A stretch of DNA of 64,000 nt from Patescibacteria group bacterium. Its GTDB lineage: Bacteria > Patescibacteriota > Patescibacteriia > Patescibacteriales > JAQTRU01. The first letter of the stretch is position 1. Each line of letters begins with the position of its first letter. The translations under genes were made by a program, and so were the position numbers. A model generated the notes under the pieces. The model was not told the origin of the DNA and did no database searches. It worked only from the letters and a program-made list of their open reading frames with translations. The stretch spans positions 10,334-74,333 of the forward strand of contig JBAZPX010000004.1 in NCBI GenBank assembly GCA_041645555.1, given 5' to 3'. Of the stretch, positions 403-59,448 are shown piece after piece.

Positions 403-1620
403 ATGAAATACTTCTTCATCCTAGGCAACAATCCAACCCTATCTATAGCCGAAATTTCGGCTGTTTTTAGCCTGGGCGATAATCCAAAAGCAGAAATCCT
501 TGGCCAGGAGGTTTTTTTATTAGAAACTGAAAATAATTTTAATCCGGCCGAATTAATTAAAAAACTGGGCGGAATAATTAAAATTGGCTCGATCTCCAAT
601 GAATTTAATTTTGATAACCAAAAAATAATAGCCGAAGCGGAAAAATTAATTGATACAAATTATCAGGGAAAAATAAAATTTGGGATTTCTCATTATGGCA
701 ATAAACAACTGAATCTTAAAGTTATCGGCATGGAAATAAAAAAATGCTTGAAAGAAAAAGGCATTAGCGTCCGCTGGGTGGTAGGCCGAGATAAAGTTTT
801 ATCAAGCGTCGTGGTTGAACAAAATAAATTAATCTCACAGGGCGCGGAGATAATTTTAATTCAAAAAGATAACCACGTTTTAATCGGCAAAACTTTAGCG
901 GTCCAGCCGTTTAAAGAACTATCTTTCCGCGATTATGGCCGACCGGGCCGGGATGATTATTCCGGCATGCTCCCGCCGAAGCTGGCACAGATTATGATAA
1001 ATTTAGCCCTACCCCACCCCTCCGGCTCCTCTCTCCTAATTAGGAGAGAGGACGGGGGTGAGGTCATCCTTGACCCCTTCTGCGGCTCTGGCACGATTTT
1101 AACTGAAAGCCTGTTGATGGGCTATAAAAATTTAATCGGTTCTGATATTTCCCCGAAAGCAATTGAAGATACGAAAAAAAATGTTAAATGGATAATTGAA
1201 AATTGGAAATTGAAAATTGGAAATTTAAAATTTTATCAGCAAGATGCGCAAAAAATATCTCAGGAGATTAAATCTAACTCAATAGATTATATAATTACTG
1301 AACCCTACCTTGGCCCGCAAAGAGGGAAAATTGACATAAAAAAAATTGTCCAAGAACTAGAACAATTATATACCAAGTCATTGTCAGAATTCAGTAAAAT
1401 TTTAAAACCGGATGGATGGATAGTTATGATCTGGCCGGTCTTTCGCATAACGCATAACGTAGAACGCATAACGCCAAACATTATTGGCTTTCAAATAATC
1501 AACCCCATTCCGGAAAATTTACGGCAAGACAAGAGAATAAAATTAACCGACAGAAACACGATTATTTACGGACGTGAACAACAAAAAGTCTGGCGGGAAA
1601 TCGTGATATTAGAAAAATAA
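403..1620 (+). CDS. SAM-dependent RNA methyltransferase (Trm11/RlmL-like, THUMP-like N-terminal half)
   Basis: ORF 355-1620 trimmed to ATG 403 (MKYFFILGNNP). Class I methyltransferase motif I ILDPFCGSGT and motif IV-like ITEPYLG. Confidence 0.6.
   Translation: MKYFFILGNNPTLSIAEISAVFSLGDNPKAEILGQEVFLLETENNFNPAELIKKLGGIIKIGSISNEFNFDNQKIIAEAEKLIDTNYQGKIKFGISHYGNKQLNLKVIGMEIKKCLKEKGISVRWVVGRDKVLSSVVVEQNKLISQGAEIILIQKDNHVLIGKTLAVQPFKELSFRDYGRPGRDDYSGMLPPKLAQIMINLALPHPSGSSLLIRREDGGEVILDPFCGSGTILTESLLMGYKNLIGSDISPKAIEDTKKNVKWIIENWKLKIGNLKFYQQDAQKISQEIKSNSIDYIITEPYLGPQRGKIDIKKIVQELEQLYTKSLSEFSKILKPDGWIVMIWPVFRITHNVERITPNIIGFQIINPIPENLRQDKRIKLTDRNTIIYGREQQKVWREIVILEK
1012..1063. repeat. GC-rich palindromic element inserted in-frame in the methyltransferase CDS
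   Basis: Perfect palindrome cctctctcctaa/ttaggagagagg (1028-1051) flanked by ccccacccc and gggggtgagg. It encodes PHPSGSSLLIRREDGGEV just before motif I. Same motif set as the DUF559 gene flanks at 36531-37028. Confidence 0.6.
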
Positions 1621-35747: not shown

Positions 35748-35779
35748 AATGTTTAAAGTATGATATGATTAAATATTAG
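35740..35779 (+). promoter_or_regulatory. sigma70-type promoter, cassette B (40-nt copy identical to 33799-33838)
   Basis: TTGACA (35741-35746), 17-nt spacer, TATGAT (35764-35769). The -35 box overlaps the ATG (35745-35747) of the divergent ATP-grasp gene. Confidence 0.65.
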
Positions 35780-35881
35780 TATATTTTGTTTTTTACAATT
35801 CGCAATCGTAATAATAGCAACAAAACCAGTAGCAAAAACCACAACCGCTGGTAAATTGCCGGCAAAACCAAGGAGGAAACC

Positions 35882-36439
35882 TTGAAGAAGAGACTGCAAA
35901 TTCGTAGACACACCGACAAGAACGGCGAGCAGGCCAGCCAGGCCGGACTTGGCCGTTTCCGCCACGAAAATCTCGTCGACGCTCCCAAAACCGTCACCGA
36001 TGTTTTCTGTGGCTCCCATCTCAGCCGAACCGCCCAGACCGCCCTCGGTGCCTGTTGCGCCAACGGCATCAAGGCCTGTGTCCATGAAGCCGATCCGAGA
36101 TTCGGCACCTCCGAGATGTTCGACGGCTGGAAAGCCAGAGGGCTCCTCGACAAAGTCAAGGCAGCCGGAAGCCTGTACGCCGCGCTCCTGCTGATTCTCG
36201 ACGAGAAGGAACTCGACCTGGTTCGGACCGCCCTCAAGAACGCGACCGAAGAGGCCTTCTGCAAGATCGAAGATGATGGACACGGGCTCATCTTCCACCA
36301 TTCGCCCTTGGTGGAACTGACCGCCACGATCTTCGGCTATCCCGCCGAAACCCTCAAGCTCGCTTCCTGCGAGGGGATCATGCTTGAACAGGACGATGAC
36401 GGCGACATCACCGTCACCGGAATCCTTTACGCCGCCTGA
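35882..36439 (+). CDS. GC-rich Cys/His-rich protein of unknown family, paralog B (185 aa)
   Basis: SD ccaaggagga plus a TTG start. Same conserved blocks as paralog A, plus a ~30-aa internal insertion. Confidence 0.7.
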   Translation: MKKRLQIRRHTDKNGEQASQAGLGRFRHENLVDAPKTVTDVFCGSHLSRTAQTALGACCANGIKACVHEADPRFGTSEMFDGWKARGLLDKVKAAGSLYAALLLILDEKELDLVRTALKNATEEAFCKIEDDGHGLIFHHSPLVELTATIFGYPAETLKLASCEGIMLEQDDDGDITVTGILYAA

Positions 36440-36461
36440 TCCCTCGGCACAACATCATGAA

Positions 36462-36517: not shown

Positions 36518-36530
36518 ATCCAAACACCGC

Positions 36531-37028
36531 ACCTCACCCCCCGTCCAAACTACCTCACCCCCGACCCCTCCCCTAGTCAGGGGAGGGGGAATTAAATAAA
36601 TCTTTTCTGATTTTATTTAAAACTGCTTCTATATTATTCTCAACTTCTTTATTTTTAAATCTTATAATTTTATAGCCGGCTTGCTTTAAGATATCTTCTC
36701 TAATTAAGTCCACTTCTTTTATCTCCCTTTTATTATGAACTCCGCCGTCAATTTCTATTATCAATCTTTTTTGGGGACAATAAAAATCAATAATAAAATT
36801 ATAAACTCCCAAAACCAATGGCTCCTGCCGCCTAAATCTAAAGCCTAATTTTCCATCCCCTAGTTCTCTCCAAAGTATTTTTTCGGCTTTGGTCATATCC
36901 TGCCGAAGCGCTTTAGCTATATATAATATTTTTGTATTTCCCGACATATAGATATCATCTCCCCCGGCCCCTCTCCTGACTAGGAGAGGGGAAGCGATCC
37001 GCCAGCTGGCGGAGAGACGGGGTGAGGT
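36531..37028. mobile_element. DUF559 endonuclease gene unit bounded by inverted GC-rich ends (putative selfish element)
   Basis: acctcacccc (36531-36540) is the exact reverse complement of ggggtgaggt (37019-37028). Internal palindromes cccctcccc-tagtca-ggggagggg (36565-36588) and cccctctcctgac/taggagagggg (36968-36991). Confidence 0.45.
36573..36947 (-). CDS. DUF559 (Vsr/restriction-endonuclease-like) domain protein
   Basis: ORF trimmed to MSGNTKILY. LR...T.AE..LW..L......FRRQ....Y..DFYC....L.IE.DG..H, then IIRF.N.EV. Confidence 0.7.
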   Translation of the reverse strand: MSGNTKILYIAKALRQDMTKAEKILWRELGDGKLGFRFRRQEPLVLGVYNFIIDFYCPQKRLIIEIDGGVHNKREIKEVDLIREDILKQAGYKIIRFKNKEVENNIEAVLNKIRKDLFNSPSPD

Positions 37029-37041
37029 GCGGGCCGTAAAA

Positions 37042-37977
37042 TCACCCAACAATCGAAATTTTCGTTCCATCAATCACAACCTCATCTCCATTTTTTAAAA
37101 TCTTAGTCGCATTTTTAACGTTCACCAGGCAGGGTTTTTTTGCCTCCCGCGCCAAAGTCGCGACGTGGCAGGTCAAACTTCCTCTTTCTATAATAAAGCC
37201 AGAGATATGGCTGCGCAAGGTCGGCAATAATTTCATATCTGAATCAGGCAAAACTACAATATCTCCTTTAACAACTTTATTTTTATCTTTAGCGGTTTTT
37301 ATAATTCTAACTTTGCCTTTGGCCTTGCCGGGTGCGGCCAAAACTCCGGATAACTCTTTAAAAGGACTAGCCCTTAATTCTTTCTCCAATTCTTTTTTCA
37401 TATTTTTAAAATCTTTTATTAAAATGGTTTTTATGCCCATTCTTTTAGCGTCAATCAAATTACTCTCATTATCATCTATATAAATTACTTCTTCCGGTTT
37501 TACCTTAAACCTTTTTAAGACTAACCTCAAGGTCTCTTCGCTCGCTTTAGGCAAATTAAGCTCCCAGGTATTGATAATATTTTTAAATATTTTTTTTAAA
37601 CCAAATTTTTTTGTTACGTCCGCCAGCTGGCTGCGGGTATTTTTGGAAAGAAGCAAGGTCTTATAACCCCCTTTATTAAGCTCCCGATTTAATTTAACCG
37701 TTTCTTTATTAAGTTTCATTAAGCTATAATGCAATTTTTTAATTTCCGGCAGAGAAATCGGCAATTTAAAATAATCAATCGGTTCAAGCCAGGCTTGTTT
37801 CTGCGTGATCTTCCTGGTGGCAGCTAAATTCATATATTTATGATAAAAAACCTTGTGGTAATCCTGCCAGCGGCCGCCGAATTCCTTAGCCAAAGCTTTG
37901 GCGGTATTGGGATAACCCTCATTTAAAACTAAACCATAGCAATCAAAAATAATAAGCTTTATTTTATTCTTTCCCAT
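37042..37977 (-). CDS. HAD-like hydrolase fused to a PEP-utilising phosphohistidine swivel domain
   Basis: HAD motifs IIFDCYG, LLLSKNT and YIDDNESN. C-terminal GSLTCHVATLAREAKKPCLV. Confidence 0.7.
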   Translation of the reverse strand: MGKNKIKLIIFDCYGLVLNEGYPNTAKALAKEFGGRWQDYHKVFYHKYMNLAATRKITQKQAWLEPIDYFKLPISLPEIKKLHYSLMKLNKETVKLNRELNKGGYKTLLLSKNTRSQLADVTKKFGLKKIFKNIINTWELNLPKASEETLRLVLKRFKVKPEEVIYIDDNESNLIDAKRMGIKTILIKDFKNMKKELEKELRASPFKELSGVLAAPGKAKGKVRIIKTAKDKNKVVKGDIVVLPDSDMKLLPTLRSHISGFIIERGSLTCHVATLAREAKKPCLVNVKNATKILKNGDEVVIDGTKISIVG

Positions 37978-47179: not shown

Positions 47180-47254
47180 AAAAAAAGTTGCCCTCCTTGT
47201 AAAGGAGGGATGGGGAGGTTTTTAAACCCCCTTTGTCCCCCTTTCGAAGGGGGA
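47180..47254 (-). terminator. tandem GC hairpins (terminator region) between the 91-aa gene and infB
   Basis: ccctcctt-gtaa-aaggaggg (47191-47209) is followed on the minus strand by caacttttttt. A second hairpin gtccccctt-tcg-aagggggac lies at 47235-47254. Confidence 0.5.
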
Positions 47255-47320
47255 CATTTTAAAAGTAAACAATAAAAAATAACCCCCAGTCTTAAGGATC
47301 ATTTTTACATCGCAAAAAAA

Positions 47321-47672: not shown

Positions 47673-47713
47673 GTCATTGCGAGTCCTGCCCGCAGGCGGG
47701 GCGAAGCAATCTC
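47673..47713. repeat. gtcattgcgag...cgaagcaatc element, copy a
   Basis: gtcattgcgagtcctgcccgcaggcggggcgaagcaatctc, with an internal hairpin cctgcccgc-a-ggcgggg. Confidence 0.7.
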
Positions 47714-47806
47714 TGGTTATTTAGAAATAACAAAAAAATTAAAAAATATTATTTTACCCTAGCGAATATTGATTATAGCCATTTAATAAAATTAGGCTTC
47801 GTGCCT

Positions 47807-56563: not shown

Positions 56564-56580
56564 AATTCTCCCGAATAATA

Positions 56581-56620
56581 CTGCCGCCGGCTCCAAGCTC
56601 CGCGTGGAGCTGACGGGGCG
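56581..56620 (+). repeat. direct-repeat element R1 (ctgccgccggctccaagctccgcgtggagctgacgggg)
   Basis: Hairpin agctcc-gcgt-ggagct. Copies in the same orientation at 57569 and 59337, each just after a gene end. Confidence 0.7.
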
Positions 56621-56709
56621 AAACACATAATTTATTACCACCGGATTTTTGTCCTTTGACAGAATGTTTTTAAAAGATTACCCCCAAATAAAACAACAGG
56701 AGGCGCGAC

Positions 56710-57568: not shown

Positions 57569-57598
57569 CTGCCGTCGGCTTTAGCTCCGCGTGGAGCT
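57569..57598 (+). repeat. direct-repeat element R2
   Basis: ctgccgtcggctttagctccgcgtggagct. Confidence 0.7.
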
Positions 57599-57609
57599 AG
57601 AGAGATAAA

Positions 57610-57745
57610 CCCCACCTCACCTCCGCCTCGGCAAGCCTCCGGCCCGCTTCTCCGCCAGCTGGCGGATTCAGCGAGGCGAGCGAGACGGGCTAGCCCTCTC
57701 CTTAAATCCCCCTTACCCCCTTTACCGAAAGGGGGTATAAAAAGG
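57610..57745. repeat. composite of GC-rich palindromic modules
   Basis: cccacctcacc, ccgcctcggcaagcc, tccgccagctggcgga (also at 36998-37013), ttcagcgaggcg (also in tRNA-Val insert 2), and the cccctttaccgaaaggggg hairpin. Confidence 0.6.
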
Positions 57746-57757
57746 GGGCAAAATAAT

Positions 57758-58135
57758 ATGGAAAATAAAATTAGTAAAAGTTTATACTGGACGCCAAGAA
57801 TTTTATCAATAATCTTCTTATTGTTCCTCGCGATGTTCTCATTGGACGTTTTTGAAACGGGATTGACCGCCGGGCAAATAGCCATCGGTTTATTTATGCA
57901 TAATATCCCTGTTTTTATTCTGGCGATTGTCCTTTTGATATCATGGAAATACGAAATTGTCGGAGGGATAGGATTTATTCTGGCCGGGCTGGTTTATATC
58001 GCTCTGCTTATGAGAAACCCATTCCAGTGGTATATGTTATCCTGGGCTATCCAAATTTCCGGAATGGCTTTTTTAACAGGAATATTATTTCTTATCGGCT
58101 GGTTTAAAAAAAATAAAAAAAGCCTTCCTTTATAG
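57758..58135 (+). CDS. hypothetical membrane protein (4 TM)
   Basis: 125 aa with four hydrophobic helices. Confidence 0.5.
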   Translation: MENKISKSLYWTPRILSIIFLLFLAMFSLDVFETGLTAGQIAIGLFMHNIPVFILAIVLLISWKYEIVGGIGFILAGLVYIALLMRNPFQWYMLSWAIQISGMAFLTGILFLIGWFKKNKKSLPL

Positions 58136-59336: not shown

Positions 59337-59374
59337 CTGCAGTCGGCTCCTTGCTCCGTATAGAGCTGACGGGG
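59337..59374 (+). repeat. direct-repeat element R3
   Basis: ctgcagtcggctccttgctccgtatagagctgacgggg, followed by ctccgcctcggcaagcc, which is shared with 57621-57637. Confidence 0.65.
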
Positions 59375-59448
59375 AAATCCCCCCCAACCCTCCGCCTCGG
59401 CAAGCCGATAGGCGAGATGGGCCTTTATCAAGGGGGCAATAAAATAAT

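Follow-up and report, generated by a model that had tools for sequence, protein, structure and literature searches.

How does a GC-rich palindromic repeat come to lie, in-frame, within a methyltransferase gene of a member of the Patescibacteria? The question is raised by a 64,000-nucleotide stretch of contig JBAZPX010000004.1 (assembly GCA_041645555.1; hereafter the window), in which a 405-residue Trm11/RlmL-like (UPF0020) S-adenosylmethionine-dependent methyltransferase, encoded at 403-1620 on the forward strand, carries such a block just in front of its motif I. Because the G+C content of the window is only ~40%, this block is conspicuous. Comparison with related genes shows it to be a lineage-specific copy, recent and tolerated in-frame, of a repeat family already known from across the bacteria, and also shows the inverted ends of a cassette, located 36 kb away, that encodes a DUF559 nuclease to be formed by this family. 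The block probably stands to the cassette in the relation of a miniature inverted-repeat transposable element (MITE) or a repetitive extragenic palindromic (REP) sequence to its parent, with spread of the repeat driven by the nuclease.

The assignment of the host gene is based on its open reading frame (ORF), Pfam matches, synteny and an AlphaFold model. The encoded protein matches UPF0020 (E = 1.6e-13; 51.3 bits against a gathering cut-off of 22.3) and Methyltransf_31 (E = 3.1e-13), and it has 4497 homologs in Patescibacteria. Motif I, ILDPFCGSGT, is kept in most homologs, and its D, P, C, G, S and T are invariant in the alignment. The gene is adjoined by ychF, and the order rpsF-ssb-rpsR-efp, methyltransferase, ychF is found at the syntenic P0002, P0004 and P0008 loci. 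Codon-level comparison with L003, L004 and L005, and with L001, L173, L174 and L175, delimits a variable block of 20 codons at 1006-1065 (forward strand), and its peptide, ALPHPSGSSLLIRREDGGEV, is read in-frame directly N-terminal to ILDPFCGSGT, as the initial annotation had stated. The proposal that an insertion is tolerated here within a coding region is also upheld by the orthologs, as the block is absent from P0002 and P0008, which possess the short linker SGAKNDD(V/T) (the insert-free L003, L004 and L005 read CTA TCT GGC GCG AAA AAT GAC GAC ACA ATT at the site). The ancestral linker of 8 codons (24 nt) has been replaced by 20 codons (60 nt) in the window, a net gain of 12 codons. In the AlphaFold model, which was built from 82 sequences (predicted local distance difference test, pLDDT, 87.8; predicted template modelling score 0.88), the block corresponds to residues 202-221, situated between helix 192-201 and the strand at 221-224 that leads into motif I, and residues 206-213 have pLDDT values below 50 in an otherwise confident model. 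Such a low-confidence loop position would be the profile expected of a tolerated surface-loop insertion.

The core of the block is a perfect palindrome, TCCTCTCTCCTAA/TTAGGAGAGAGGA, which was originally described as 24 nt long and which inverted-repeat analysis places at 1027-1052, a length of 26 nt. On either side of the palindrome lie the 10-nt arms of an imperfect inverted pair, ACCCCACCCC at 1011-1020 and GGGGTGAGGT at 1055-1064, which are 90% complementary; the outer C-rich arm (1011-1020, forward strand) repeats the cassette end CACCTCACCCC in degenerate form. Within this element of ~55 nt, a triplex-motif core at 1028-1063 (forward strand) is made up of a C stem (CCTCTCTCC, 1028-1036), the loop TAATTA (1037-1042), a G stem (GGAGAGAGG, 1043-1051), the loop ACG (1052-1054) and a G-rich third strand (GGGGTGAGG, 1055-1063). 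A generic rule-based finder for triplex motifs (TMs) reports 0 hairpin mismatches and 1 third-strand mismatch for the core, equivalent to one mismatched triad. Computed hairpin folding of 1005-1070 as single-stranded DNA gives -18.6 kcal/mol (z = -3.86 versus shuffles), and only one of the three reading frames through the element is open in either orientation. The claim that the element and the ends of the DUF559 unit have motifs in common is confirmed by their positions in the window: GGGGTGAGG is observed four times (1055, 36532, 36553 and 37019) against 0.26 expected, a count reached in 0/100 shuffles, and the hairpin pattern CCYCTCYCCT-N4-AGGRGAGRGG is observed three times (1028, 36565 and 36968) against 0.00 expected. 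A search of Rfam returned no family at the gathering threshold for either the element or the DUF559 cassette.

The element is assigned, as a non-autonomous copy, to the BoxC/PIT/TMECO family of intrastrand triplex motifs rich in G and C, an identity that had previously been missed. This repeat was named BoxC, then the PIT element (Hoyne/Maher), and then TMECO or intrastrand triplex motif by Holder et al. (2015, Nucleic Acids Research; PMC4666352). The TMECO pattern is 5'-CCCTCNCCC-N3-6-GGGNGAGGG-N3-GGGNGAGGG, in which the second G-rich 9-mer pairs antiparallel to the purine stem via G.G, A.A and T.A; in E. coli these motifs are always intergenic, often occur as inverted pairs, and mark loci with elevated sequence turnover (PMC4666352). 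TMECOs are reportedly missing from Salmonella. Similar to TMECOs, the methyltransferase copy has a 9-nt C stem, a loop, a complementary 9-nt G stem (pairing is perfect across 1028-1051), a 3-nt loop and a 9-nt G-rich third block, and its single mismatched triad lies within the threshold used for membership (at most one third-strand mismatch, with a 3-nt second loop). The core words of the two are nearly identical (GGAGAGGG and GGGTGAGG), and both families share frequent inverted pairs, a wide spread and a link to local sequence turnover. The literal TMECO pattern is not matched, as the window copy reads CCTCTCTCC...GGAGAGAGG-ACG-GGGGTGAGG, with register and sequence shifted, and it is best placed in a related subfamily rather than with the E. 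coli consensus. In addition to the hairpin and the G-rich third block, the copy contains a degenerate C-rich block on its other side. Two further distinctions are that the window copy lies in-frame in a gene, whereas E. coli motifs are intergenic and away from mobility genes, and that the window family supplies both ends of a DUF559 cassette. The pattern CCTCACCCC..CCYCTCYCC..GGRGAGRGG occurs in at least 120 stretches of a species-representative genome set that covers many phyla; among the matches listed are Planctomycetota, Chloroflexota, Bacteroidota, Cyanobacteria, Verrucomicrobiota, Acidobacteriota, many Proteobacteria and Nomurabacteria, and the consensus among them, CCTCACCCC-N2-5-CCCCTCTCC-loop-GGAGAGGGG, is strikingly constant. 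Miniature forms consisting of an end, one hairpin and an end recur in other genomes.

The methyltransferase site has been struck repeatedly. In a survey of 119 homologs, 35 keep a 9-residue basal linker with a common pattern (SGAKNDD, SQAKTED, VQAKLED and similar), and because this linker recurs in distant clades it is taken as ancestral, so that the long forms are read as recurrent gains or replacements. Longer linkers of 11-62 residues are present in 84 of the 119 (71%, variable in both length and sequence); at least 36 of these 84 are translated triplex-type repeats (PPLLTRRGAGGEV, SPSPYQGEGRGEV, PPLTKGGRGDF), while 17 are translations of other GC hairpins (VETQNLASL, PVRTQDFVFP). The turnover is visible between close relatives. 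The window protein shares 78% and 72% identity with P0002 and P0008, respectively, over the whole protein (82% and 75% outside the variable site), and the insert-free P0002 is 93% identical outside the site to P0003, which has a TM, and 90% identical to P0005, which has a different hairpin. On a tree built without the variable site, the insert states are intermixed. The DNA of six further orthologs was checked at the site: L001, L173 and L175 contain the hairpin followed by GGGGTGAGG, the variant in L174 has the left part of the window block in common (CTACCC..GGCTC.TCT), L177 contains a different TM (GCCCCCTTTAACAAAGGGGGGGAGGGGGGATTT) and L176 a plain hairpin. In L173 (ortholog P0003; 6336-6400) the third-strand block GGGGGTGAGGT is tandemly duplicated (GGEVGGAGGEV), a minor instance of TM instability of the slippage type. 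Taken as a whole, the alignments mark the site as a hotspot for GC-rich repeats, and other loops of the methyltransferase also hold such peptides in some orthologs. The identical boundaries may reflect site-specific or independent insertion, or allele transfer; the 99-nt flanks of the P0003 TM allele show no donor-like mosaic of the kind that a recombination patch from a P0004/P0007-like donor would produce.

Two other segments of the methyltransferase, ENWKLKIGNLKF (1198-1233) and FRITHNVERITPN (1441-1480), were considered as further insertions and rejected, as both are common to distant orthologs and hence native. The DNA that encodes FRITHNVERITPN consists of CGCATAACG-type short direct repeats, although the peptide is probably native. 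Similar repeats, CGCATAATTCGCAATTCGC, are found at 300-330, just upstream of the gene. In ortholog P0006, the peptide SLSLRGSESDRSNL at another methyltransferase loop may be a translated copy of a hairpin related to TCATTGCGAGTCCTGCCCGCAGGCGGGGCGAAGCAATCTC, a GC-rich hairpin repeat that lies between genes of the window at 47675-47715.

The DUF559 cassette (36519-37041, reverse strand) is ~520 bp long and is recognized as an indel relative to syntenic relatives, with boundaries that are approximate to within ~10 nt. It is located between the stop codon of a HAD/PEP-utilizer gene (37042-37044) and a shared terminator hairpin. Its outermost 14 nt form perfect terminal inverted repeats, with CCGCACCTCACCCC at 36527-36540 the exact reverse complement of GGGGTGAGGTGCGG at 37019-37032 (both given on the forward strand). 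The sole ORF of the cassette encodes the DUF559 protein (36573-36947, reverse strand), a 124-residue nuclease with a Vsr-type, PD-(D/E)XK-like fold that matches PF04480 with E = 2.8e-32 (111.3 bits against a cut-off of 20.6). The residues D52, E63 and D65, which occupy invariant alignment columns, are intact, and among solved structures PDB 3HRL, an 'endonuclease-like protein', is nearest in sequence (E = 9.2e-14). Pfam also returns weak matches to MTES_1575, PvuRts1I-like_N and DUF2726, and none to Y1_Tnp. A triplex motif lies at either end of the gene. The motif at the 3' end (36553-36588, forward strand) reads CCTCACCCC-CGA-CCCCTCCCC-TAGTCA-GGGGAGGGG, was called by both the TM finder and the hairpin pattern, and contains the DUF559 stop codon TAG within its hairpin loop. 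The motif at the 5' end (36956-36992, forward strand; TM finder and hairpin pattern) combines the hairpin CCCCTCTCC-TGACTA-GGAGAGGGG with the adjacent block ATCTCCCCC, an arrangement that recurs in L130, L131 and L180; the GGGGGAGAT block, as read on the strand of the gene, could double as the ribosome-binding site. Read in gene orientation, the unit therefore consists of CCGCACCTCACCCC, a 27-nt spacer, a hairpin, GGGGGAGAT, the gene, a hairpin whose loop contains the stop codon, GGGGTGAGG, a spacer and GGGGTGAGGTGCGG.

Comparison with relatives shows the cassette to be, by all appearances, a discrete insertion. At the empty site in L178 the stop codon of the HAD/PEP-utilizer gene runs directly into the shared terminator (gttgggtaa joined to aaaaagaggaccgag), the syntenic site in L179 is likewise without the cassette, and in L131 and L180 the cassette is present with the same ends. 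There is no TM at the empty site, and the repeats and the gene therefore arrived together.

Several features of the surrounding DNA were also recorded. GC-rich hairpins related to TCATTGCGAGTCCTGCCCGCAGGCGGGGCGAAGCAATCTC occupy the empty DUF559 site in L179. A 16-nt palindrome in the cassette spacer, TCCGCCAGCTGGCGGA (36998-37013), recurs at 57650-57668 in an intergenic GC-rich cluster upstream of the ORF at 57758, and this cluster also holds CCCCACCTCACC and a TM. The segment adjoining the cassette at 35753-36440 is GC-rich with several overlapping open frames, including ORFs of 182-185 residues on both strands; its counterpart in syntenic relatives is a gene of ~200 residues that is His_Phos_1-like in L179. 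In L131 (2405-3955) and L180 (4929-6410), an extra PEP-utilizer gene lies between the HAD/PEP gene and the cassette. As this gene is absent from the window, the HAD/PEP-DUF559 intergenic region appears to be a general hotspot of gene-content change.

The association of DUF559 with TMs extends well beyond the window. DUF559 loci were chosen by similarity to the window protein, and TMs were called in them with the same generic finder. A TM is present within 200 nt of the gene at 24 of 41 metagenomic DUF559 loci, with a density of 3.06/kb near the gene versus 0.117/kb elsewhere in these loci (26-fold). Inverted TM copies flank DUF559 in the window, L123, L055, L113, L129, L136, L144, L145 and others. 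The stems vary between loci (AGGAGAGGGG, AAGGGGGAA, GGGAGAGGG, GGAGGGGG, GGGAAGGGG, AAGAGAGG) in a manner that follows the nuclease, as close DUF559 proteins have common TM stems and distant ones have different stems that still obey the triplex rule. The Deinococcus DUF559 gene has TMs with a variant third block on both sides, the Synechocystis gene has one TM downstream, and the Picosynechococcus gene has a short CCCCC/GGGGG/GGGGG type on both sides. In E. coli the DUF559 gene is ycjD, and a TM abuts its stop codon; TMECO no. 9 lies beyond this TM, between ycjD and fabI in MG1655 and ~170 nt from ycjD (Table 1 of PMC4666352). Sequence searches with the E. coli locus are unusable as a phyletic test, since dispersed TMs inflate the matches. 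Together, these surveys show that DUF559 genes across phyla are enriched for TM ends, as an association. No paper linking DUF559 to triplex repeats was found in the searchable literature, a search outside which most subscription journals fall, and Holder et al. make no mention of DUF559 or any endonuclease (PMC4666352).

Residence within genes is also not restricted to the methyltransferase. In low-GC loci, long ORFs contain 25 of the TMs, and the other 71 fall elsewhere. Hosts of in-frame TMs that were confirmed by Pfam include Dus (L074, a Nomurabacteria genome), the CCA-adding enzyme of L132, where both the TAATTA loop and the LLIRR peptide of the window copy recur, and DnaE in L172; a Wzy_C-like membrane protein in L173 and L175 is a further host, identified from the precomputed Pfam annotation of L175. 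Entire TM-DUF559-TM cassettes are likewise found in-frame: in LeuRS (L145, 3041-5032; L149, 2987-6265), with both insertions at one position, after the WIGxSEG motif and before the editing domain, in AlaRS (L162, 3-1871), and in a Type ISP restriction-modification enzyme (L113, 2007-5570). In these ORFs the TMs translate as Pro/Gly-rich linkers on either side of the nuclease domain. In the LeuRS and AlaRS ORFs, the Pfam matches that lie between those to the host domains are confined to DUF559 and, weakly, MTES_1575; no splicing (Hint) domain is detected. Consequently, the insert would stay in the mature protein, joined to it by the TM-encoded Pro/Gly linkers.

A mechanism may be proposed from these observations. 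The repeats are tied to DUF559 by the terminal inverted repeats, the empty sites, the adjacency across phyla and the matching of repeat subtype to nuclease clade, and DUF559 would on this basis mobilize the TM repeats. First, the nuclease would recognize or nick the structured TM ends or the target. Next, copies would be installed through break repair. Nicking followed by break repair would account for the lack of target duplications, for small deletions or replacements of the target and for the fast turnover at TM sites, and it would fit the instability reported for TMECO loci (PMC4666352). In the methyltransferase gene, the repeat would have entered at a recurrently struck site, replacing the original 8-codon linker. 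It would persist there because the only stop-free frame is the one used, and because the Pro/Gly/Ser/Arg-rich stretch sits in a disordered surface loop where the fold is left undisturbed. Arrival as a solo or miniature element is one possibility for this copy; another is that a full in-frame cassette collapsed between its two hairpins and left it behind.

The short copies are thus best described as putative non-autonomous relatives of the cassette, and comparison with known mobile systems helps to define the relationship. Like a MITE, the window element is small, is without its own coding capacity, and has terminal inverted repeats in common with a larger, gene-bearing element in the same genome (ACCCCACCCC and GGGGTGAGGT in the element, CCGCACCTCACCCC and GGGGTGAGGTGCGG at the cassette ends). 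In contrast to a MITE, the window element has no target-site duplication, its target sequence has been replaced, and its parent cassette is without a recognized transposase. To our knowledge, DUF559 is a nuclease fold without transposase activity. The description of the element as a MITE-style derivative is therefore largely sustained by the shared ends, the discrete cassette, the empty sites in L178 and L179 and the miniature forms, and has to be qualified with respect to target duplication, the 24-nt replacement and the transposase. The accompanying suggestion that it derives from the unit at 36531-37028 by loss of the ORF does not hold up as well, since the copy could equally have arrived alone and its closest relatives contain the hairpin and right end only. 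In the REP/RAYT system (REPtron), a RAYT gene is flanked by inverted copies of a short palindromic repeat, further copies of which are scattered over the genome. The DUF559 system is similar in that a single-copy gene is flanked by inverted repeat copies and the repeat sequence follows the gene clade. RAYT is an HUH/Y1 transposase of the IS200/IS605 type, whereas DUF559 is a Vsr-fold, PD-(D/E)XK-like nuclease for which, unlike RAYT, we know of no strand-transfer chemistry; REPs are also extragenic, unlike the window copy. The Rickettsia palindromic elements (RPEs), reportedly first described by Ogata and colleagues in 2000, are ~100-150 bp long, AT-rich, restricted to Rickettsia and without an associated gene. 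RPEs resemble the window element as short palindromic selfish repeats that are tolerated in-frame in surface regions of proteins of a small-genome bacterium, but the window element belongs to a different size class and sequence family (~50 bp, GC-rich, pan-bacterial) and is tied to a nuclease gene. Finally, inteins and free-standing homing endonuclease genes likewise involve a nuclease ORF placed in-frame in essential genes (here LeuRS and AlaRS) at conserved positions; inteins differ in that no splicing domain is detected by Pfam in the LeuRS and AlaRS cassettes.

A number of observations weigh against a nuclease-driven origin of the block. We know of no DUF559 activity on TMs, and of no PD-(D/E)XK nuclease that transposes DNA by itself. 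Neither a target-site duplication nor a conserved target word was found at the methyltransferase site or at the cassette site, and at the former 24 nt of target sequence were replaced rather than cleanly interrupted. The subfamily of the methyltransferase element is represented by only three copies in the window, alongside three copies of other TM subfamilies. The finder and the set of DUF559 loci do not form an unbiased sample, and 17 of the 41 loci had no TM under the criteria used. Most TM copies are far from any DUF559 gene, with a DUF559 ORF directly abutting the motif at 6 of the 120 motif loci listed (in four phyla). The TMs around DUF559 also adopt two opposite geometries, with the third-strand blocks outermost (the window type) or innermost (L019 and L043). 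Furthermore, TMECOs form triplexes as single strands in vitro, with none detectable in vivo, and are never near transposases or integrases (PMC4666352).

Some of these points favour an alternative in which TMs are autonomous structural repeats that spread via slippage, recombination or break repair at non-B DNA, and DUF559 is a passenger that lands beside TMs or uses them as insulators or terminators; the methyltransferase copy would then be unrelated to DUF559. The solitary state of most TMs and the two geometries are consistent with such autonomy, as are the local instability linked to TMECOs without a mobility gene (PMC4666352) and the presence of different repeat families, some of them non-TM, at the same methyltransferase site. 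This alternative is nonetheless considered unlikely. The empty sites (L178 and the canonical LeuRS and AlaRS genes) are without TMs, so that TM and DUF559 arrive as a unit with terminal inverted repeats, and neither the 26-fold higher TM density at DUF559 ends nor the agreement of stem sequence with DUF559 clade is anticipated for a passenger.

The occurrence of full cassettes in-frame in LeuRS, AlaRS and the Type ISP enzyme raises a second alternative, namely that the methyltransferase element is the in-situ remnant of a complete TM-DUF559-TM cassette that collapsed by recombination between its near-identical hairpins. Such a collapse would be expected to produce a lone hairpin with an end motif on either side, which is the form seen in the window copy. 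It is an improbable history for this gene, as none of 120 orthologs has DUF559 in the methyltransferase loop (the longest insert, of 62 residues, is a different repeat), the closest TM-bearing relatives contain only the hairpin and the right end, and the left arm is degenerate. More doubtful still is a selected function of the block in the methyltransferase or its mRNA, whether as a regulatory hairpin, a flexible linker that tunes substrate binding or a hypermutable site. The stability of the hairpin, the variation of the site in 71% of orthologs and the tie between E. coli TMs and local variability (PMC4666352) would all suit such a function; the peptide, however, is not conserved among close relatives, the site accepts unrelated repeat families while the basal 9-residue form remains widespread, the block is without structure in the AlphaFold model, and the same DNA motif is found between genes and in unrelated proteins, which together make the idea very improbable. 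A chance resemblance between a native Pro/Gly-rich linker and the DUF559 flanks, conceivable given that the motifs are short and of low complexity, is effectively refuted by the excess of hairpin and GGGGTGAGG copies over expectation, by the same consensus recurring across phyla and by the absence of the block from the nearest orthologs.

Beyond the probable MITE- or REP-like origin of the block lies a broader proposal, which is possible but doubtful: YcjD-like DUF559 nucleases may be the missing partner enzyme of the BoxC/TMECO repeats, the two forming a mobile cassette, widespread and driven by the nuclease, whose ends form triplexes or hairpins and which spreads in complete form as well as in the form of miniature or solo ends. 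Such cassettes could settle in-frame in essential genes without splicing, because their end repeats translate into flexible Pro/Gly linkers. The repeat family itself is already known, and the repeats have been recognized since the 1990s without a known origin, function or mobility gene (PMC4666352); what appears to be new is that they reside in coding regions of Patescibacteria, that a single site is a hotspot for them and, most notably, that they are linked to DUF559 cassettes. DUF559 (ycjD in E. coli) would offer a testable candidate for the missing enzyme. In small-genome Patescibacteria and some other low-GC lineages, the repeats, and even complete nuclease cassettes, have become part of housekeeping proteins, where they provide a source of protein-length variation. 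They also present an annotation trap, as a translated repeat may be what underlies a Pro/Gly-rich "insertion" or an odd extension at the N or C terminus. After the RPEs of Rickettsia, this would be a second, independent case of selfish DNA within ORFs.

The window contains further repeats that are distinct from the methyltransferase subfamily. Two other triplex-type repeats, GCCCTCCTTGTAAAGGAGGGATGGGGAGG and CCCCCTTTGTCCCCCTTTCGAAGGGGG, form an intergenic inverted pair at 47190-47255, as judged by the TM finder and the ORF map, and another, AAATCCCCCTTACCCCCTTTACCGAAAGGGGGT, is intergenic at 57704-57736 (forward strand) and belongs to a subfamily found in-frame at the methyltransferase site of ortholog P0042. 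A motif of ~45 nt, ACTGC(C/A)G(C/T)CGGCT..GCTCCG(C/T)(G/A)T(G/A)GAGCT(G)ACGGGG, is present in three copies (56580-56625, 57570-57615 and 59338-59385) and has no match in Rfam. At least the second and third copies are upstream of small membrane-protein ORFs, and the motif may represent either a cis-regulatory RNA of no established class or a further family of repeats.

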